A stretch of DNA of 64,000 nt from assembly GCA_964607415.1 (NCBI GenBank), contig CAZSKK010000002.1, positions 224,585 through 288,584 of the forward strand, given 5' to 3'. The stretch comes from an uncultured Candidatus Saccharibacteria bacterium. GTDB taxonomy: Bacteria; Patescibacteriota; Dojkabacteria; J137. Position numbers and translations under genes: made by a program. Of the stretch, positions 4,513-63,017 are shown piece by piece. Position 1 is the stretch's first letter. Each line of letters starts with the position of its first letter. Below the pieces are notes generated by a model. That model did no database searches and had not been told where the DNA came from. It saw nothing but the letters and a program-made list of their open reading frames with translations.

Positions 4513-4586
4513 GCACTTGTAGCTCAACTGGATAGAGCACAACTTTGCGGAAGTTGAGGTTGGAGGTTCGAATCCTCTCAAGTGTA
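4513..4586 (+). tRNA. tRNA-Arg; anticodon reads GCG in loop TTGCGGA
   Basis: 74 nt cloverleaf: acceptor GCACTTG/CAAGTGT, D-arm GCTC-AACTGGATA-GAGC, anticodon stem CAACT/AGTTG, T-arm GGAGG-TTCGAAT-CCTCT; strong similarity to bacterial tRNA-Arg D and T arms; CCA not encoded. Confidence 0.8.
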
Positions 4587-6198: not shown

Positions 6199-7941
6199 TT
6201 ACATACGCTCTACCGTCTCAATTCCAAGAAGATTTAAACCATTTTTTAGAACAATACTGGTAGCTTGAGTTAGGGCAAGGCGCGCTTGTCTATCCTGTTC
6301 TGTTTCTGCTTCTATTACTCTACATTCGCTGTAAAATCTGTTAAAACTTTCTGCAAGTTCGAAAAGATAAGTGCAAATTATGTGTGGTGTAATCTCAGTA
6401 CCAGCTTTAAAAGCAGTTTCTTTATATTCATCCATTTTCTTTAATAAATATAGTTCAGGTTCAGAATTTAAAACTGCATCTAAGTTGCCTGGAACTTTAG
6501 CTTCCTCAATTTCAGCCTTTCTTAAAATTGATTTGCATCTTGCATAAGAGTAAAGAACATACGGTCCCGTGAAACCATCAAAGCTTAAAAATTGCTCCGG
6601 ATCATAACTAAAATCCTTATGAAACTCATGTGATAAAACCAAGAACTTTAGCCCAGCCATTGCAACTGCACTAGATATCAACTCCTTTTCGTCTTCATCA
6701 TATTCCGCAATTTCATCAATTTTTTTTCTTGCTACATTTTTTATTTCATTCAAAATGTCCATGCCTTTAACTGACTCTCCCATTCTTGAACTGAATTTTT
6801 TACCTCCTCTTAACATCCAACCAAATGGTATGTGTTCATACCTGCCAGTAAACTTAGAATCTATAAGTTCCAAAACCTTAATTACGGCTTTAAAATAGTC
6901 TTTTTGTTCTACAGAAGTTGTTACTATTCCTTTAAATAAATCTGGATATTCTTCAAACTTTTTATAAGCAAGGGCTAAATCTTTCGCAGAATAGGTTGGA
7001 TTTCCGTCTTTAGTTAAGAAAACCCAATTATTTAAGCCAATTTTTTCACCTCTATAAATTATTGCACCCTCACTTTCTTCGAATATTTTTCCGCTGTATT
7101 TTTGAACTATTTTTACACCCTCCTCGTAAACCTCACTTTCGGGATATTGTCTATCGTAAGTTATTCCTAAAGTTTTCCAAACTGCATCTTGATGCAGAAT
7201 GCTGTATTCTCTAAGTTTTTTGTATGTTTGCGTTTCTTTGTTATCAACTTTCAAATATATATCCTTATTTATATGTCTTATTTCTTCTTCCGCTTTTTTA
7301 TTTTCTTTAAAAGCATTTGATCCTTTTACATAGCAGTTATCAATAAGTTTCATTCTTTCATGAGCTTCCATTGAATCAAAATTTTCTGGAACTTCAGTAT
7401 GTAAAAAACCCCAAGTGCATTTGGCGACATGCATTCCAACATCTCCAAAGTAATTGGCTTTTATAACATTGTATCCAAGGTTTTCGTGAAGTTTAACCAT
7501 AGAAAGCCCAGACACTGCACTTTTTAAATGACCAATGTGAAATGCTTTGTGAGTATTGGGCTGGCCAAATTCAATCATTATTTGTTTATCTTGTCCCAAG
7601 TTAGATTTACCAAAGTTTTGATCTTGAAGGATTTCTTTAACTATTGATTTAGAATGAATTCTCTTGTCTTTAAAATTCAAAAAACCACTTATAGATGAAG
7701 CCTCTTCAGTAATCGAATTAATATCTAGAAAAGAATTAACTTTTTCGGAAAGTTCTTTTGCAACTTCATTTGGAGATTTTTGCAGAATACTTGCTAATTT
7801 AAAAGTTACAAAAGTCCAGTCACCATGTTCACTGTTTTTGGGTCTTTCTAGAATAACAGGATCTTCGTAGTCAAGAGCATATAAATCTTTTATAGAAGAC
7901 AAAATTAGCCTTCGTTTTTCTTGAACAGATTTATCTTCCAT
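6199..7941 (-). CDS. argS: Arginine--tRNA ligase
   Basis: Class I HIGH motif (AFHIGHLKS), 580 aa, ArgRS N-terminal add-on domain and typical C-terminal ...ETVERM. Confidence 0.95.
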   Translation of the reverse strand: MEDKSVQEKRRLILSSIKDLYALDYEDPVILERPKNSEHGDWTFVTFKLASILQKSPNEVAKELSEKVNSFLDINSITEEASSISGFLNFKDKRIHSKSIVKEILQDQNFGKSNLGQDKQIMIEFGQPNTHKAFHIGHLKSAVSGLSMVKLHENLGYNVIKANYFGDVGMHVAKCTWGFLHTEVPENFDSMEAHERMKLIDNCYVKGSNAFKENKKAEEEIRHINKDIYLKVDNKETQTYKKLREYSILHQDAVWKTLGITYDRQYPESEVYEEGVKIVQKYSGKIFEESEGAIIYRGEKIGLNNWVFLTKDGNPTYSAKDLALAYKKFEEYPDLFKGIVTTSVEQKDYFKAVIKVLELIDSKFTGRYEHIPFGWMLRGGKKFSSRMGESVKGMDILNEIKNVARKKIDEIAEYDEDEKELISSAVAMAGLKFLVLSHEFHKDFSYDPEQFLSFDGFTGPYVLYSYARCKSILRKAEIEEAKVPGNLDAVLNSEPELYLLKKMDEYKETAFKAGTEITPHIICTYLFELAESFNRFYSECRVIEAETEQDRQARLALTQATSIVLKNGLNLLGIETVERM

Positions 7942-9983: not shown

Positions 9984-10624
9984 TTTAAATTTAATTCTTT
10001 TAATAAATTATTTGAAACCTCCTGGATAGAAAAAGAGGCATCCAATTTTAGCAATTTATTCTGTTTTTTGTACTTTTCTAAAATATTTTCGTTATTCTTT
10101 TTAAATTCCTCTAATCGCTTTAAAATTGCCTCAGGCTTGTCATCCTCACGTTGAATCAATTTTGTACCGCACTTATCGCATACGCCTTCAACCTTAGATG
10201 GTTTAAATATAGTATGATAGTTCTGGTTATCCTTAGGACAAATCCATCTGTTGGATAGTCTTTTGATAGCCTCATCTGGACTTAATTCAAAGTACACAAC
10301 TTTTTCCAAAACTTTTCCAGAAGATGATAAAGTGCTGTCTAAAAGCTCCACCTGTTCAGGAGTTCTTACAACTCCAGTAAAAATTACTTTATCAGTGTTA
10401 ATATTTTTAACTTTATTTCCAAGAATTTCATACACAATTTCATCCGGAACCCATCTTCCTTGATTGACATACTTTTCTGCTTCTATGCCTAATGGTGTTT
10501 TATTCGCCATTTCTGCACGGAGTAAATCCCCTGTAGAAACTATCTGATATCCAAAGTCTCGAGCTAAAACATCTGCCTGCGTATCCTTTCCGCTTCCAGA
10601 AGGCCCTATGAATAATAAGCTCAT
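9980..10624 (-). CDS. adk: Adenylate kinase (zinc-lid type)
   Basis: FIGPSGSGKDTQ P-loop, CPKDNQNYH...CDKCG lid. Confidence 0.95.
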   Translation of the reverse strand: MSLLFIGPSGSGKDTQADVLARDFGYQIVSTGDLLRAEMANKTPLGIEAEKYVNQGRWVPDEIVYEILGNKVKNINTDKVIFTGVVRTPEQVELLDSTLSSSGKVLEKVVYFELSPDEAIKRLSNRWICPKDNQNYHTIFKPSKVEGVCDKCGTKLIQREDDKPEAILKRLEEFKKNNENILEKYKKQNKLLKLDASFSIQEVSNNLLKELNLK

Positions 10625-10628
10625 ACAA

Positions 10629-11354
10629 TTAGTAGATAATAAATAACCCAGTAAGTATTAAAAAAAAGAATGCTAAGCCAAATAAAAGAACCGCTATGTA
10701 ATAAGCACTATTATCAATAAAATCATCAAATTTATTTCTGTATGTTCCTATTGAATGTTTAAAAATCAAGCCCAAAACCAACCCCGACAAAAAACCTCCA
10801 AGGTGTGCCCAATTGTTTATACCAGAACCAGGAAAAAGCCCAACAGAAAAAGCCAAAATAACCGCAGGAAATATATCCCAGAATGTAAACGGTAAATCAA
10901 AACCAAATCTCTGTTTTCTGATTGTACCTCCAATCAGCAAACCAGCAAAAGCGAAAATTGATCCCGATGCTCCAAGGCTAAACACTGAGTTGTCTCCAAT
11001 TGTATAAATCAAGATTGTTATTATAGATGCTCCAACCCCTCCTAAAATGTAAGTTGCAAATAATTTTCTGCCTCCATAAAACACTTCTACTATCTGTCCC
11101 AATCTATAAAGTGAATACATATTCAAAAGAAAATGTAATATATCTATATGAAAAAAATTTGCAGTTATTATTGAATAAAAATTTGAAAGCTCTCCCCTAG
11201 AAACTACTATACCCCCAAAAAGTGAAAAATCCGTTTGAGTAAAATAACGAAGATCAAAAAATACCTGTGCAAATATTGCCAGAACAAAAATTAAAAAGTT
11301 CCAGAATAGTAAAAAATTTAGAGCACTAAGTTGTATCTTAATATCTACCTTCAT
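10629..11354 (-). CDS. Rhomboid-family intramembrane serine protease
   Basis: GASGSIFAF (GxSG) and AHLGGFLSG catalytic His in TM helices. Confidence 0.85.
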   Translation of the reverse strand: MKVDIKIQLSALNFLLFWNFLIFVLAIFAQVFFDLRYFTQTDFSLFGGIVVSRGELSNFYSIITANFFHIDILHFLLNMYSLYRLGQIVEVFYGGRKLFATYILGGVGASIITILIYTIGDNSVFSLGASGSIFAFAGLLIGGTIRKQRFGFDLPFTFWDIFPAVILAFSVGLFPGSGINNWAHLGGFLSGLVLGLIFKHSIGTYRNKFDDFIDNSAYYIAVLLFGLAFFFLILTGLFIIY

Positions 11355-13515: not shown

Positions 13516-13843
13516 AAATGTTGTAAATTTGTAAAGTCTTTAAGTTTTTAACGTTATAACATTGTAACTTTACAACGTTAAGATATTCTCTTAGCGAAGA
13601 CACGAGCATTATATCATTAGCAACGTTACTCGTTAAGTGCCAATAAAGTGTTAGCGCGTTTCGCTTTTATAGGTTATTATTAAATCAATTTGTTCACAGT
13701 TAATTAGAAAGCTCATTAATTAACCTTAATCAACCTTTTACAAGCTAACTCTATTAGTTTATGACTAATCTCTGACTTCTGCTTTCCAATTTCTTGTTTG
13801 TTTCAAATTTAGGATTTAGAATTTTGCATGTTAATATATTCTA

Positions 13844-38466: not shown

Positions 38467-39102
38467 TTGATATTTAATTTTGAGTCAGCAAACAGCGGAC
38501 GAAAGTCTTGTGTTTGTTGCAAAGTGTTAAAGTTACAACGTTTTAAAGTTAAACTTTTTAACTTAAGAATTTTTATGAGACAAACAATAATCTGGCTAGT
38601 ATTAGGAATCATGATTTTAGCATTCACAAGAGTTTTTGTGGGTAGTATTTCACCTTTTAAAGAGGGTAATCTGAATGAATTAATACAGTCCAAAGAAATT
38701 GGACCAGAAGAATGGGAGAAGTTAAATACAGAAATAAATATAGCAATAGAGAGGGGTCTAATTTTTGAATATCTTTCAGTTAATGCATACATCGGGGCGT
38801 TTTTGGTTTCACTTTCGCTTTTTTGTATTTTTACGTCAATCCACCTATCTATAGATAAACTATTTTTTAAAGATTTTTATGTGCGAGCATCACTGTTTGA
38901 TGCAACTCGTAGATCCTTTCTATTTGTACTAGCTATAAACGGAATTATTTACCTGCTTTTATATAATACTGAAATTTACGTTGTATTAGTTACTCCACTT
39001 TTAGCGCTAATTGTTGAAATTTTATTTACAAAATATGTAAAAGAAGTATTTGTTCAAAAGGTTAGAAGAATAAATGAGCTGTCCAAAAAACCTTCGGTTT
39101 AA
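38467..39102 (+). CDS. Hypothetical membrane protein (start possibly internal Met near 38575)
   Basis: Multiple TM helices. Confidence 0.35.
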   Translation: MIFNFESANSGRKSCVCCKVLKLQRFKVKLFNLRIFMRQTIIWLVLGIMILAFTRVFVGSISPFKEGNLNELIQSKEIGPEEWEKLNTEINIAIERGLIFEYLSVNAYIGAFLVSLSLFCIFTSIHLSIDKLFFKDFYVRASLFDATRRSFLFVLAINGIIYLLLYNTEIYVVLVTPLLALIVEILFTKYVKEVFVQKVRRINELSKKPSV

Positions 39103-39117
39103 TTTAGTAGTTTTTAA

Positions 39118-39163
39118 GCCTCGCCCCGGCCTCCCAAAGCTTGGCCACCCTCTCCTTTAGGAT
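39118..39163. repeat. Family B GC-rich palindromic element copy (abuts family A copy 2)
   Basis: gcctcGccccGGCCTcccAAAGCTTGGCCacCCTCTCCTttAGGAtga, parallels tsaD-internal element gcctcAcccaCCAGCCTAAAGGCTGG..CCTCTCCTgccAGGAGaagg. Confidence 0.65.
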
Positions 39164-39194
39164 GAGAATGCATATTATGCATTCGAACGGAGCT
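39164..39194. repeat. Family A element copy 2
   Basis: GAGAATGCATATTATGCATTCGAACGGAGCT; downstream about 50 nt similar to copy 1 (..AGCTA-NNN-TAGCT..AGCACAATG..). Confidence 0.8.
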
Positions 39195-39251
39195 AAATTA
39201 GCTGCACTCAAAAGCACAATGTGTTTTTTCGGGTGAGACGACCTCAGATTC

Positions 39252-41005: not shown

Positions 41006-41629
41006 TTGTTATTAAACCTGGTAATTACTTTAGCTTTTAAAGCCTTTCGTATGCCACGATTCCTAGGTAGAGCAAGATCATCAAAAGCTGCCCCAAAACC
41101 TTTTGGAGAAGCAGATATAATTTTTCTTCCGGGTTATTCAGTTAAAAATAAATCGGAACAAGATAATATTGCTAACTTTTTAGGTAAAAAAGGTTTAAAT
41201 TCATATAAGCATAGATGGGCTCATTGGGAAAACGAATCAGTTAGTTTTAGTAGAACAAGAGAATTGGAAATTATTAAGTCGAAATTGCCTAAGAATGAAG
41301 AGTTTGGGATAATCGCAAAGTCTATTGGAACAATAATTGCGGCAGAACTTTTAAGCCAAATAAATAAACGAAGAGTCAAGTTTGTTGTTTTGCTTGGAAT
41401 TCCAATCAACAATCTAAAGTCATCAGATGTATTGAAATTTATAAACACTTTTAAAAATTTAGGAGTTCCAATTCTTTGTATTCAAAATTCAGAGGATCAA
41501 TTTGGCGATATTGTTCAAGTTCAGGATCTTTTGAAGGAAGTGGAATATGATCAAGTTATAAAAGATGCTGAAGGTCATAGCTACAACTATCCTGAGGATA
41601 TATATAATTTTATTTCAAGTGTGTTTTAA
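41006..41629 (+). CDS. Alpha/beta-hydrolase-like protein
   Basis: IIAKSIGTIIAAEL nucleophile-elbow-like segment. Confidence 0.35.
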   Translation: MLLNLVITLAFKAFRMPRFLGRARSSKAAPKPFGEADIIFLPGYSVKNKSEQDNIANFLGKKGLNSYKHRWAHWENESVSFSRTRELEIIKSKLPKNEEFGIIAKSIGTIIAAELLSQINKRRVKFVVLLGIPINNLKSSDVLKFINTFKNLGVPILCIQNSEDQFGDIVQVQDLLKEVEYDQVIKDAEGHSYNYPEDIYNFISSVF

Positions 41630-41630
41630 T

Positions 41631-41661
41631 AAAAAACTACGCACCTTTGGTGCGTAGTTTT
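41631..41661. terminator. Bidirectional rho-independent terminator (AAAAAACTACGCACC-TTT-GGTGCGTAGTTTT)
   Basis: Perfect 12-bp GC-containing stem flanked by A-run and T-run between convergent genes. Confidence 0.75.
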
Positions 41662-41697
41662 AGCATATAACTTTATCGGAGAAGATACTAGATAGAA

Positions 41698-42189
41698 TTA
41701 ATTAAGATCAGGAATAACAACTCCAAGCTTCTCTAAACTTTGAATAATTTCTGCAAGATCGTTAAGTTTCTCGTCAAGTAGTCTTGATTTTCTATTTATT
41801 TCTCTAAGTGCTAAAATCTTGCCTAAAATAGGTAACTCTGCTGTGTTTTGACTAGCAATAGCTACTTCACTAATCCACATATTATAAAAACGAACTGATT
41901 CTTTTCTCGCATTCAATAATTCATGCGATAATCTACGCTCGATTTTAGAAGGATCTACAAAAACATTTTCATTACTTGTTTCTAAAGGTAAGGGGATTTG
42001 GAGACTAGTTCCAATTACTAAAATAAGTTCTGGCTTTGTTTTCAAATCTGAGATAGGTCCTGTAAAAATCTCTCTTTGTCTAACTGAACAACCGGAACCT
42101 TCAGCTCTAGTGTTAAAATCCTGAATAAATGTTCCCACTTCTTGTAAGGTATTAGATGTTACTTCAACCTGAGGATCTAAATTAGACAT
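41698..42189 (-). CDS. Hypothetical protein with C-terminal coiled coil
   Basis: 163 aa. Confidence 0.3.
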   Translation of the reverse strand: MSNLDPQVEVTSNTLQEVGTFIQDFNTRAEGSGCSVRQREIFTGPISDLKTKPELILVIGTSLQIPLPLETSNENVFVDPSKIERRLSHELLNARKESVRFYNMWISEVAIASQNTAELPILGKILALREINRKSRLLDEKLNDLAEIIQSLEKLGVVIPDLN

Positions 42190-42336
42190 AAAGTATGATT
42201 AATAAATACTGACTGTATTATATATACATACAATTATACTGTCAATAGAATTGTGTAGTTTTAAAATAGAGTTAATAGGTCAATTCAATTTTTGATTTTC
42301 TCGACAACTTAATACGTTCTCTCGTATAATTCAACC

Positions 42337-43569
42337 ATGAATAAATTAATTACCACCTTGGCAATAGACACATCTTGTGATGAAACTTCTGTAGCTGTAG
42401 TTAGAAACTTTACAGTTCTTTCAAACGTACTTCCTACTCAAATTGAATTTCACAAAAAATACGGTGGAGTAATGCCATCAGTTGCAAAATTAGCTCATAA
42501 AGAAAGAATTGATAATGTTGTGATTGAAGCTATCAAAAAAGCAAAAGTTGATTTTTCAGACATAGATGCAATTGCAGTAACAATTGGGCCAGGCCTTGCA
42601 ATTGCTTTGGAAGTTGGAATTGAAAAAGCAAAAGAACTAGCAAGCAAATACAATAAGCCTTTGATTACAGTTAATCACATGGAAGGACACCTGCTTTCGG
42701 CATTCGCCGAAAGGAAAGAAGCCTCACCCACCAGCCTAAAGGCTGGTCCCCCCTCTCCTGCCAGGAGAAGGGTTGAGGGAGAAGCTTCCTTTCCAAATCT
42801 GGGAATGCTGGTTTCCGGAAATCATACTGAAATTATTTTAATTAAAAACTTTGGCGAATATCAAAAAATTGGCGAAACGCTTGATGATTCGTGTGGAGAA
42901 GCGTATGACAAATGCGGCAGAATGTTGGGCCTTGGTTATCCTGCAGGCCCTGTTATTTCCGAATTTGCAAAACAAAACCGAAAAAATATGGAGCTTGGAA
43001 TTGCAAATATAAATAATTCGGTACATGCTTGGGCAAAAAATAAAAAAACTAAAGCCTACTACTCTCTTCCAGTTAGCATGGCAAAGTCTAATGATTTGAA
43101 CTTTAGCTATTCTGGATTAAAAACCGCATTTAAACAGCTTGTAACAAATGTAAGTGGTCAAAATATTTCGTACGAAGATCAACTTTCAGGTTCAATTAAT
43201 TTAAATAAAGAACAAATTATGGACCTTTGTGTAATTTTTGAACATGCAGCGTTAAGCCAGATTTCAATAAAGTTATCCAAGGCAATAAAACAATATAAAC
43301 CAAATGAAGTGTGGCTTGGTGGAGGTGTTGTTGCCAGCACAAGATTAAGATCAATTGTTAGAAGTTTATGCAAAGATAATAACGTGATTTTAAGGGTTGC
43401 AAATACAAAAAAACTTTTTGGTGATAATGCTGCAATGATTGGTGTAGCAGCGAATACCAGAATTATGCTTCAAGATTCAAGAATTAAGAATTTTGAACAT
43501 TCTCCGGCATACGGGATTTTTTTAAAAGACTTTCATTTAGTGGATAGAGATCCAAATCTTTCGCTTTAG
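42337..43569 (+). CDS. tsaD: tRNA N6-adenosine threonylcarbamoyltransferase TsaD, with about 21-aa in-frame insertion
   Basis: TLAIDTSCDETSVAVV, VNHMEGHLLS, VSGNHT, GYPAGP; 410 aa versus about 340 typical. Confidence 0.9.
   Translation: MNKLITTLAIDTSCDETSVAVVRNFTVLSNVLPTQIEFHKKYGGVMPSVAKLAHKERIDNVVIEAIKKAKVDFSDIDAIAVTIGPGLAIALEVGIEKAKELASKYNKPLITVNHMEGHLLSAFAERKEASPTSLKAGPPSPARRRVEGEASFPNLGMLVSGNHTEIILIKNFGEYQKIGETLDDSCGEAYDKCGRMLGLGYPAGPVISEFAKQNRKNMELGIANINNSVHAWAKNKKTKAYYSLPVSMAKSNDLNFSYSGLKTAFKQLVTNVSGQNISYEDQLSGSINLNKEQIMDLCVIFEHAALSQISIKLSKAIKQYKPNEVWLGGGVVASTRLRSIVRSLCKDNNVILRVANTKKLFGDNAAMIGVAANTRIMLQDSRIKNFEHSPAYGIFLKDFHLVDRDPNLSL
42721..42783. repeat. Family B GC-rich nested-hairpin element inserted in frame inside tsaD (encodes ASPTSLKAGPPSPARRRVEGE)
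   Basis: CCAGCC-TAAA-GGCTGG and CCTCTCCTG/CAGGAGAAGG hairpins, outer CCTCACCC/GGGTTGAGG, flanked by ggaaagaagc/gcttcctttcc; GC-rich island in AT-rich gene. Confidence 0.7.
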
Positions 43570-43729: not shown

Positions 43730-44098
43730 ATGCAAGATTTTAGAAAACTTAAAGTATGGGAAAAATCCCATATTTTGACCAAAGAAATATACGAAGTGAC
43801 AAAATGCTTTCCTAAACACGAAATGTTTAGCTTAACTAATCAGGTTAGAAGGTCCGCTAGCTCAGTACCTACAAATATAGCTGAAGGTTCGAATAGATCA
43901 AGTGATAAGGAATTTATTAGATTTATAAATATTGCAATAGGTTCAATTACGGAGACTGAATATTTGATTTTACTTTCTAATGAGCTGAATTATATTAATG
44001 AAATTGAAAGATTTCATCTTATAGAAATGATAGTTGAAGTTAGAAAAATGCTAGTCAGTTTGAAAAATAATTTACTTATTAAATCTCGAAGCTCGTAG
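43730..44098 (+). CDS. Four-helix-bundle protein of the 23S rRNA intervening-sequence type
   Basis: KLKVWEKSHILTKEIYEVTKCFPK...SLTNQVRRSASSVPTNIAEG pattern typical of IVS-encoded 4HB proteins. Confidence 0.7.
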   Translation: MQDFRKLKVWEKSHILTKEIYEVTKCFPKHEMFSLTNQVRRSASSVPTNIAEGSNRSSDKEFIRFINIAIGSITETEYLILLSNELNYINEIERFHLIEMIVEVRKMLVSLKNNLLIKSRSS

Positions 44099-47678: not shown

Positions 47679-47808
47679 GGTGAAGAGCTTAAGAGCTAAT
47701 GAGGTTTTCAGATTTCCTCTCCCTTAGGGAGAGGACTAAGGTGAGGGCTTAAGAGTCGATGTTTTTTATAACCTCACCCTCCCCTCTCCTTAAATGGAGA
47801 GGGATTTG
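47677..47808. repeat. Family B GC-rich elements, two tandem units
   Basis: Unit 1 GGTGAAGAGCTTAAGAG...CCTCTCCC-TTA-GGGAGAGG; unit 2 GGTGAGGGCTTAAGAG...CCTCACCC..CCCTCTCC-TTAAAT-GGAGAGGG. Confidence 0.75.
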
Positions 47809-50165: not shown

Positions 50166-50217
50166 AACAAGAACATTGAAACTTAAATGCTTTTTAACTT
50201 TCTAAAACAAACAACCC

Positions 50218-50248
50218 GAGAATGCATATTATGTATTCGAGTGCAGCT
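50218..50248. repeat. Family A element copy 3
   Basis: GAGAATGCATATTATGtATTCGAGTGCAGCT. Confidence 0.8.
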
Positions 50249-50271
50249 CATAAATAGAACCACGTTAAAAA

Positions 50272-54992: not shown

Positions 54993-55300
54993 TGGTATAA
55001 TTAACAAAACGTAGAAGGAGCAAAGTACATTTTTAAGGTGACAAAAGAGATTTCGTGTTAGCTGAAAACGAAACGTACTTAAAAATCGAAACTACACTCC
55101 AGAGAAAAGAGCAGAACAGCTAAAGGGCTGTAGAGGTAAAGAGCATGCTCTATCACTCTTAACCTCTATACCTCTAAAGCTCAGTAAACCTCTTCGGGTA
55201 AGCCCGTTATTGCTGTCATCAAGAGTCTAGTATCTTCACTAGAAATTGAGGTGGTACCGCTGAGAAATCAGTCCTCATAAATATAAATTCGAAATCAAAA
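54993..55300 (+). promoter_or_regulatory. T-box-like leader upstream of tyrS, with extended -10 promoter TGgTATAAT at 54993-55001
   Basis: AAATTGAGGTGGTACCGCTGAG (55243-55264) matches T-box consensus AAUUAGGGUGGUACCGCG; UGGU bulge would pair the ACCA end of a tRNA with discriminator A (assumed for tRNA-Tyr); UAC (Tyr) codon followed by A at 55025-55028 in stem-I-like region. Confidence 0.5.
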
Positions 55301-59654: not shown

Positions 59655-60218
59655 ATGGGAAATTTGCACACTCATCAAAAAAGGTTTTACGTTGATCAGT
59701 TAGTTTACTTTGTTACAATAAAAACCCTTAATAATTTTCCTTATTTTAAATACAATTTTCTTGCTGATTTATTTATAGCTGAGCTTACACTTTGTCAAGA
59801 GATTAAAAATTTTGAACTTTATGCGTTTAATGTTCTCTACGATCATGTTCATATTTTGTTAAAACCATCCAAAGAATCAAATATTTCGGTAATAATAAAG
59901 TCTCTAAAAGAAAATTTTTCCCGTGATGCGAACAGGATTATTTTAAAAAAGCCAATTGAAGCCGCGGCGTCGACGTCGCGGCTTCACATCGATAAAAATA
60001 TAAATGAAGTGATCAAACAAAAACAGCTTTTTATGCCTAAGTTTGCATGGCAAAAATCATTTCATGATCATTACATTCGGAACTCTAAAGATTTGAAAAC
60101 CCGTTATAATTATACGGTTTTTAATCATTTGAAGCATTCAGAAGATAGGGCTTACACATCAGACTATAAATTTACATCTCTAAATTATTTTGAAATAATT
60201 GACGAAGCGTATTTTTAG
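59655..60218 (+). CDS. REP-associated tyrosine transposase (RAYT) / IS200-like Y1 HuH transposase homolog
   Basis: HuH motif LYDHVHILL; C-terminal WQKSFHDHYIRNSKDLKTRYNYTVFNHLKH (WQ..F.DH.IR..........Y...NP-type catalytic Tyr region); 187 aa; no terminal IS structure seen. Confidence 0.65.
   Translation: MGNLHTHQKRFYVDQLVYFVTIKTLNNFPYFKYNFLADLFIAELTLCQEIKNFELYAFNVLYDHVHILLKPSKESNISVIIKSLKENFSRDANRIILKKPIEAAASTSRLHIDKNINEVIKQKQLFMPKFAWQKSFHDHYIRNSKDLKTRYNYTVFNHLKHSEDRAYTSDYKFTSLNYFEIIDEAYF
59958..59985. repeat. Family C GC-rich palindrome GAAGCCGCGGCG-TCGA-CGTCGCGGCTTC inside the RAYT ORF (encodes EAAASTSRLH)
   Basis: 11/12 complementary arms; GC island in AT-rich gene; related to 56606-56634. 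Confidence 0.7.
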
Positions 60219-62130: not shown

Positions 62131-62191
62131 ACCCCTCTTCTATTCTCCCCTTTAATCAAAGGGGAGATGTCGAACGTAGTGAGACAGAGGG
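62131..62191. repeat. Family B GC-rich nested hairpin (CCCTCT...CTCCCCTTT-AATC-AAAGGGGAG...AGAGGG)
   Basis: Perfect 9-bp inner hairpin 62145-62166 enclosed by CCCTCT/AGAGGG; between RIO-kinase stop and truB start. Confidence 0.7.
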
Positions 62192-62930: not shown

Positions 62931-62986
62931 AGGCGTGAAAATTTAGAATTATAAGTAAAAATATGACTCTTTCCCCTCTTGGGAGC

Positions 62987-63017
62987 GAGAATACATATTA
63001 TGCATTCGAGTGCAGCT
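62987..63017. repeat. Family A element copy 4
   Basis: GAGAATaCATATTATGCATTCGAGTGCAGCT; preceded by GC-rich CCCCTCTTGGGAG. Confidence 0.8.

Follow-up and report, generated by a model that had tools for sequence, protein, structure and literature searches.

The window considered here is a 64,000-nt stretch of contig CAZSKK010000002.1 (positions 224,585 to 288,584), from an uncultured Candidatus Saccharibacteria bacterium that GTDB places in the Dojkabacteria. On its + strand, at 42337..43569, lies tsaD, an essential tRNA-modification gene whose product makes N6-threonylcarbamoyladenosine (t6A). The open reading frame (ORF) encodes 410 amino acids; all of its listed homologues carry the Pfam domain PF00814, the named ones come from Candidatus Dojkabacteria, in the candidate phyla radiation (CPR, or Patescibacteria group), and the best solved relative is 8iey (E=1.6e-52). 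All 49 columns that are invariant in an alignment with 77 homologues are kept in the window TsaD. Downstream of the codons for the HMEGH metal-binding motif, and ahead of those for the LVSGNHT strand, the gene contains a GC-rich segment of 69 nt (42721..42789, +), which as 23 codons reads ASPTSLKAGPPSPARRRVEGEAS and has no counterpart in the orthologous allele at locus L005. An earlier note on this DNA, made from the sequence alone, had described a GC-rich palindrome lying in frame in tsaD, and that description holds. The segment is ~65% GC; the stretch 42720-42779 has a GC fraction of 0.65, compared with 0.32 for the window, and no GC island in the 64 kb is larger. Comparisons at the DNA level show that the segment belongs to a family of dispersed, palindromic, GC-rich repeats and is homologous to copies that lie between genes, and its blocks match those of the BoxC/PIT/TMECO class, so that it would not be a new kind of repeat.

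The segment is made up of the blocks CCTCACCC, CCCTCTCC, GGAGAGGG, and GGGTGAGG, all of the following coordinates being on the + strand. Two hairpins are enclosed by an outer stem, CCTCACCC ... GGGTTGAGGG. The first C-block, CCTCACCC (42722..42729), is the 5' arm of this stem and is followed by hairpin 1, ACCAGCC-TAAA-GGCTGGT (42730..42747), and by hairpin 2 (42748..42772), which consists of a second C-block CCCCCCTCTCCT, the loop GCC, and a first G-block AGGAGAAGGG. The 3' arm, TT plus a second G-block (GAGGGAGAAGC; 42773..42785), is decayed. Its counterpart in L130, the locus of a 90%-identical orthologue, is GGGGGAGAGGC, and the L130 copy folds much better (z -6.4); relative to shuffled controls, the window segment has folding z scores of -2.7 as RNA and -2.9 to -3.8 as DNA. 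Hairpin 1 is palindromic in relatives of the element even where its sequence has changed, as in ACCGC-AAG-CGGT at locus L007 and GTCC-TTCG-GGAC in cyanobacteria. The short inverted repeats reported to flank the element are present, as GGAAAGAAGC (42713..42722) and GCTTCCTTTCC (42784..42794), but they are largely native coding sequence, the left arm being mostly the ERKE codons and the right arm overlapping the FP codons.

Only one of the three + strand frames is open across the segment. Since the other two contain stops, the open frame is not automatic, and the observation that the reading frame is preserved stands. No Rfam family matched the segment at the gathering threshold in a search of the whole window, nor at E<=1 for 42600-42900, so that a known structured RNA or ribozyme is not supported, and a terminator scan of tsaD gave no terminator-like site.

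A search of the window for the 57-nt core, exactly and with up to 3 mismatches, found only the core itself because the family is too diverged, and blastn-short and block patterns were needed to find its relatives. Well-preserved ones are in sister genomes. By blastn, the tsaD segment matches the intergenic copy L130:761-830 at 89% identity over 64 nt (E=1.3e-15; L130:761-821 aligned) and L005:3492-3567, intergenic and downstream of apbE, at 84% over 64 nt (E=3.7e-10; L005:3494-3553 aligned). Syntenic with both is a decayed family member in the window (39116..39166, +), downstream of apbE between convergent ORFs ending at 39102 and 39252; it is 74% identical to the tsaD element over 43 nt and has the same 21-nt spacing from CCTCRCCC to CCCTCTCC. 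The earlier note had assigned the elements at 39118, 47677, and 62131 to the same family. The first of these assignments is correct. Near the second, and after an ABC-transporter gene, there is an inverted pair of intergenic triplex motifs, one with the blocks in C-G-G order (47715..47747, +) and the other at 47771..47803 (- strand), which represent a short form of the same class. The third fails, since the element at 62131 shares only the general C-block/C-block/loop/G-block layout and has no significant sequence match by blastn-short. The 47715-47747 motif is 91% identical to L005:9422-9455, which is sited elsewhere, downstream of a Mg-chelatase-like gene. The pattern CCTCRCCC N1-25 CCTCTCC matches the window three times (39119, 42722, and 47772), compared with no match in 100 shuffles, and there are more copies in L005, L007, and L130. 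The element is thus multi-copy, dispersed, and far more frequent than chance, as are the BoxC/PIT/TMECO repeats.

Holder et al. (2015) defined the BoxC/PIT/TMECO intrastrand triplex motif by CCCTCNCCC and GGGNGAGGG blocks, with the TMECO pattern CCCTCNCCC N3-6 GGGNGAGGG N3 GGGNGAGGG and one stem mismatch allowed (PMC4666352). They counted 3610 TMECO occurrences in 262 proteobacterial genomes and found other GC-rich triplex motifs to be abundant in cyanobacteria; the 23 copies in E. coli K-12 are always intergenic, some of them as inverted pairs, have no link to known mobile elements and no known function, and are associated with local variability between E. coli strains (PMC4666352). The elements of the window share with this class the same CCCTCNCCC/GGGNGAGGG blocks split by short loops, the dispersed, multi-copy distribution with inverted pairs, the wide phylogenetic spread, and local presence/absence differences between close relatives. 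The two short-form motifs at 47715-47747 (+) and 47771-47803 (-) fit the TMECO pattern at no more than one mismatch per block. BoxC/PIT triplex-motif repeats are reportedly also treated in Hoyne/Maher 2000. Local variability agrees in a qualitative sense, without control loci: the tsaD element is found in the window and L130 and is absent from L005, and the 47715-type copy is at a different locus in L005. The differences are that the tsaD copy is in an ORF and in frame within an essential gene, whereas the E. coli K-12 copies and the other copies in the window are intergenic; that it is a composite palindrome; and that its host is a CPR genome of 32% GC.

A scan of GTDB representative genomes for CCTCACCC N1-25 CCTCTCCT N2-8 GGAGA returned at least 120 loci. 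Among the matches listed are Cyanobacteria, Bacteroidota, Chloroflexota, Proteobacteria, Verrucomicrobia, and about 20 CPR genomes; most of these extend the hairpin to CCCC...GGGG beyond the bases specified, and many have the full architecture of the tsaD copy, for example CCTCACCCC-GTCCTTCGGAC-A-CCCCTCTCCTTAATAAGGAGAGGGG-AAG-GGGGGTGAGG in Rivularia. Three of the 20 CPR matches listed are in frame within real genes. Two of them, in a Dus protein (Nomurabacteria) and a FAD_binding_2 oxidase (Gottesmanbacteria), are inside Pfam domains, and the third, in Moranbacteria, is in the N-terminal portion of a protein of the FemAB family. A cyanobacterial copy in Rivularia is in frame inside a Pkinase domain. 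The block pattern is also common in IMG/VR viral contigs, with at least loci L132-L211 among the matches listed. One 7.3-kb viral contig (L137) has five + strand copies, at 1895, 3740, 4396, 6595, and 7204. Such contigs could be vehicles of spread, or the copies could lie in host DNA in predicted viral contigs.

The 1233-nt tsaD gene with its element is identical in four contigs assembled independently from different runs, and one of these contigs was found in 18 samples. With three substitutions, the element recurs in P0121, the orthologue of 90% identity (loci L130 and L131, which come from other runs). The element-bearing allele is stable in natural populations. All three differences between the window and L130 elements are G/A changes, two of them non-synonymous (R to G and E to G) and one synonymous, and all three weaken pairing in the window copy, which as DNA folds at -22.1 kcal/mol compared with -32.5 kcal/mol for L130. 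Changes of this kind, mostly non-synonymous and at the expense of pairing, argue that the peptide of the element is not under constraint and would fit a window copy that is decaying under AT-biased mutation.

In alignments of the window TsaD to solved TsaDs there is a gap of 21-22 residues between FAERKE and ASFPNLGML, and the 21 extra residues that had been counted are indeed extra relative to E. coli-type and solved TsaDs. In close homologues, however, the loop is already long and hypervariable. Measured from NHMEGH to SGGHT, it spans 30 to 85 residues in the 120 closest homologues, commonly ~38, and 52 in the window. The element thus occupies a hypervariable loop and does not lengthen a short one by 21 residues. 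The L005 orthologue, whose TsaD is 79% identical (BLASTP), has a loop of 47 residues, five shorter than that of the window, in which an unrelated AT-rich stretch of 54 nt (LQNSNDEYQNKFQIPNLK) stands in place of the 69-nt element. Of the two features by which a repeat-free loop would have spoken against the earlier note, equal length and similarity, the L005 loop thus shows the first and lacks the second. In the AlphaFold2 model of the window TsaD (mean pLDDT, the predicted local distance difference test score, 89.9; predicted template modelling score, pTM, 0.88), pLDDT falls to 58 for residues 131-140 and 75 for residues 141-150, with flanks of at least 92, and this stretch is between a helix (114-123) and a strand (154-159). 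The linker that holds the element in frame joins the HMEGH helix to the initial strand of the following TsaD subdomain. The structural check suggested in the earlier note therefore places the segment in a low-confidence linker. Low pLDDT between well-predicted domains fits a flexible interdomain linker, and the model is accordingly compatible with the segment being such a linker at the TsaD domain boundary.

A three-way alignment of window 42560-42900, L130 3519-3860, and L005 6221-6550 gave discordant relationships along the gene. In the flanks the window and L130 have 28 differences in 238 positions, whereas L130 and L005 have 11 in 238. In a tract of ~100 nt, which starts ~25 nt upstream of the element and ends at the FP codons, the window and L130 have 4 differences in 103 positions, and L130 and L005 are unalignable. 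Because the tract groups L130 with the window and the flanks group it with L005, the alignment indicates mosaic ancestry, with a short recombination or gene-conversion tract around the element; either the element-bearing or the AT-rich tract may have been exchanged by local recombination.

Related elements are found in the same loop of TsaD in other Dojkabacteria-like lineages. At L007 (P0042) the element is CCTCACCC-ACCGCAAGCGGT-CCCTCCTCTCCT-AAA-GGAGAGGG, in outline CCTCACCC-hairpin-CCTCTCCT-AAA-GGAGAGGG, and is read in a different frame as LPHPPQAVPPLLKERA. L006 (P0005) has a relative of 100 nt with an 18-bp outer stem (z = -6.3), reading TSPHPSPDSVEGG..., and L128 (P0078) has a more distant variant. 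The loop of another TsaD, P0106, available as protein only, reads HSPQPTAHSPLPIAHTS and is not counted among them. All of the tsaD loop elements leave the frame intact and have lengths divisible by three. Related DNA is read here as unrelated peptides, in one case in another frame, which places the conservation in the DNA and not in the protein. The element-positive TsaDs are only 53-61% identical to one another, and their nearest relatives (65-88% identical) have short AT-type loops. Given this distribution, the economical reading would be independent gains of loop elements in at least three other Dojkabacteria-like lineages. The phenomenon is thus wider than the earlier note had proposed, since it takes in the same loop in three other lineages and the Dus, FAD-binding oxidase, and FemAB genes elsewhere in the CPR.

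GC-rich inserts are found at other sites of tsaD as well. The L128 gene (P0078, 480 aa, Dojkabacteria) has three separate GC-rich in-frame inserts, at 10215-10296, 10520-10560, and 11239-11290. The one after residue 69 (RPSPLPGEGE) has a block pattern like that of the window element at a different site in the protein, and a G-rich one is near the C-terminus. The L005 gene has a different GC-rich palindromic in-frame insert of 96 nt (6690-6785), which reads PPRSKPQGVPSEKLVIGKEPQQAAEYLSADN and is flanked by AATAA direct repeats; the window (~43043) and L130 have clean empty sites for it, and no second copy was found in any sequence examined. The GC-rich loop of P0110 (L129) was considered as a family member and rejected, as it is a different, ACCT-type tandem-like sequence.

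We consider it probable (roughly three chances in four) that the segment is a selfish, non-autonomous palindromic repeat of the BoxC/PIT/triplex type, tolerated in frame in a permissive linker of TsaD. The element would be built from C-rich blocks (CCTCACCC and CCCTCTCC), their G-rich complements, and a variable inner hairpin. It would spread by a trans-acting activity, and alleles with it would then be exchanged by local homologous recombination or gene conversion, with which the data fit. In an essential gene the surviving copies would be those that keep the frame and lie in a permissive loop, the others being removed by selection. The mRNA would be read straight through, giving a disordered surface loop of 23 residues, rich in Pro, Ser, Gly, and Arg, that TsaD tolerates. 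Such a copy would then decay through G-to-A changes under AT mutation pressure, and it would presumably serve no function for the host.

Several points weigh against this explanation. There is no clean empty site, given that L005 holds 54 unrelated AT-rich nucleotides at the same place; with a discordant tract that begins ~25 nt upstream, insertion is inseparable from replacement by recombination. No target-site duplication or flanking direct repeat is visible at the tsaD copy. The copy conforms to the strict TMECO pattern only when two mismatches per block are allowed (42749..42785, +; pattern from PMC4666352), and on the C-rich side an 18-nt hairpin replaces the 3-nt spacer. Translation of the element is a matter of inference. 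Finally, the tsaD loci were picked for their odd loops, so that a preference for tsaD is not established; the idea that tsaD is an insertion hotspot was rejected as a claim for this reason. About 140 neighbouring genes contained no such insert, which is statistically compatible with a rate of 3-4%, as among TsaD homologues.

The strongest competing explanation is that the element is kept or regained for its structure as a nucleic acid in cis, for example as a ribosome pause at the TsaD subdomain boundary, as a hairpin for mRNA stability, or as a hotspot of recombination or instability through which the loop is diversified. Four lineages have related elements at this one interdomain linker, the divergence of the window from L130 is about a third as high in the element tract (4/103) as in the flanks (28/238), and twice independently, in the window/L130 copy and in L006, the palindromy continues into native flanking sequence. 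Holder et al. also tied the repeat class to local genomic variability in E. coli (PMC4666352). However, most of the 120 homologues lack an element at this site, the window copy is losing base pairs, and the sequence, length, and frame of the element vary among lineages; the same repeats are found in ordinary intergenic DNA, other sites in TsaD also take GC-rich inserts, and a recent allele transfer would explain the low divergence equally well. A cis role of this kind is, in our judgement, unlikely. Recurrence at one linker, low divergence of the tract, and palindromy into the flanks do leave some room for either a cis-acting structural role or a target preference at the linker, and together these two seem unlikely. 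Behind the recurrence there might be more than mere tolerance, namely a structural target in the form of a small palindrome centred on AAA/TTT at the K-F-P codons.

It is also conceivable that the segment is a native protein loop under selection, such as a Pro/Arg-rich extension that binds tRNA or a partner protein, and that its similarity to intergenic repeats is secondary. An open frame, the persistence of the allele in several populations and in the 90%-identical orthologue, and a position near the active-site helix of TsaD would be expected of such a loop. The peptide, on the other hand, lacks conservation. In three lineages the peptides read from related DNA have nothing in common, and one of them uses another frame; two of the three changes between the window and L130 are non-synonymous; the closest orthologue has an unrelated AT-rich loop; the intergenic copies are 84-89% identical in DNA; and model confidence is low across the segment. 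We regard a selected native loop as very improbable.

Even less credible is the proposal that the segment goes untranslated, either because it is cut out of the mRNA as a small intervening sequence or because the ribosome bypasses it. CPR genomes are known for unusual intervening sequences in their rRNA genes, and the strong local structure with complementary flanks would suit such an element. Against this, the frame is intact and the length divisible by three in every case, Rfam has no matching family even at E=1, excision of the 89-nt palindrome with its flanks would shift the frame, and no self-splicing RNA of 60-90 nt is known. That the segment is an assembly or chimera artefact, a natural suspicion for a GC-rich repeat within an AT-rich metagenome-assembled genome, can be dismissed, since the identical gene in four independently assembled runs refutes it and a diverged copy with three substitutions in the element comes from still other runs.

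The preferred explanation, a tolerated selfish repeat, recalls the Rickettsia palindromic elements (RPEs), to which the earlier note had compared the segment. The comparison is apt for behaviour, and less so for the nature of the element, as its class was already known (BoxC/PIT/TMECO). RPEs (Ogata et al. 2000) are, according to PMC10969869, ~100-150 bp long, AT-rich like their host, and marked by a conserved peptide in each family. Like them, the elements described here are selfish palindromes that occur between genes and in frame in unrelated housekeeping genes of reduced, AT-rich genomes, and the added peptide segment is compatible with the fold. They differ in being 45-100 nt long and GC-rich in an AT-rich background, with an unconserved peptide read in different frames, and in belonging to a different phylum; by description and by its CPR-like host, the element is set apart from RPE-1 to RPE-10, and kinship in sequence is not expected.

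[quoted passage not shown] MITEs are tied to insertion sequence families by their terminal inverted repeats and target-site duplications, in contrast to the tsaD copy, which has no visible duplication. Terminal inverted repeats are present in L130 (GAAGCCTC/GAGGCTTC) and decayed in the window, which is a weak test for a palindromic element. REP (repetitive extragenic palindromic) sequences and REPINs, which are mobilised by RAYT transposases, are also short GC-rich palindromes with many dispersed copies, often in inverted pairs. REPs are extragenic, species-specific, and RAYT-linked (PMC3116915), whereas the block sequences here are near-identical across phyla.

The surroundings of tsaD provided some additional observations. 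A strong promoter-like site, TCGACA-18-TATAAT (11/12), at 42301-42330 ends 7 nt before the tsaD ATG (42337), which suggests that the tsaD mRNA may be leaderless or near-leaderless. Between the abhydrolase-like gene and tsaD, the window (41627-42348) has ~670 nt more than L005, including a 163-aa ORF (41698..42189, - strand) without a Pfam match; the corresponding gap in L130 is also short. The gene directly 3' of tsaD (43730-44098) belongs to the 23S_rRNA_IVP family (PF05635 in the syntenic genes of L005 and L130). Since it keeps its position in the window, L005, and L130, it is unlinked to the presence or absence of the element.

Other repeats are also present in the window. A second family of ~75 nt, GAGAATGCATATTATGCATTCGA...AGCTGCACTCAAAAGCACAATGTG...TTTTTCGGGTGAG, occurs in both orientations, with copies at 39163-39240 (abutting the decayed element at 39116), 50214-50251, and 62986-63017 in the window and at 9491-9565 in L005. 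As the L005 copy is 84% identical and at a different locus, this family appears to be mobile. An AT-rich repeat containing AACGTT (TTTAAACGTTTTAACGTTACAACTTT-like) is found in intergenic spacers of the window (13547-13579 and 38521-38553), L130 (1823-1894, 4636-4670, and 8657-8696), and L005 (2880-2951). At 59960-59987 there is a perfect GC-rich palindrome of 28 nt, GAAGCCGCGGCGTCGACGTCGCGGCTTC, in AT-rich surroundings, with a sequence unrelated to the tsaD element. The Rfam matches in the window were ordinary features, a T-box leader (55003-55279, 99.5 bits) and a tRNA gene (4513-4586).

Much of what is described here has precedents. Selfish palindromes that lie in frame have been described for the RPEs of Rickettsia and, on occasion, for ERIC, QMITE, and Anabaena MITEs (PMC10969869), and the repeat class itself is known; the finding reveals no new mechanism. 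What is new is that a member of the BoxC/TMECO class has a coding location, that its host belongs to the CPR, and that a single loop of an essential gene has been hit repeatedly. A literature search for in-frame palindromic repeats in the CPR found nothing specific, with incomplete coverage, and this is absence of evidence only. A broader and doubtful proposal is that the triplex-motif (BoxC-type) repeats are mobile elements found throughout the bacteria, possibly carried by phages, whose insertions in CPR genomes routinely fall in frame in permissive protein loops. On this proposal, repeated gain, recombinational exchange, and AT-biased decay of such elements could together drive the variation in TsaD loop length from 30 to 85 residues.

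For CPR proteins, it follows from the finding that repeat DNA, and not adaptation, accounts for some "lineage-specific insertions", with consequences for annotation, alignment trimming, phylogenomics, and structure prediction. The origin and mobility of the BoxC/triplex-motif repeats have been unexplained since the 1990s. In tsaD, gain, loss, and exchange of such a repeat are datable among genomes that differ by a few percent, and the occurrence of this essential gene in forms that have the element and forms that lack it offers a natural test bed. Both could serve in studies of the mobility of these repeats and of their cost.

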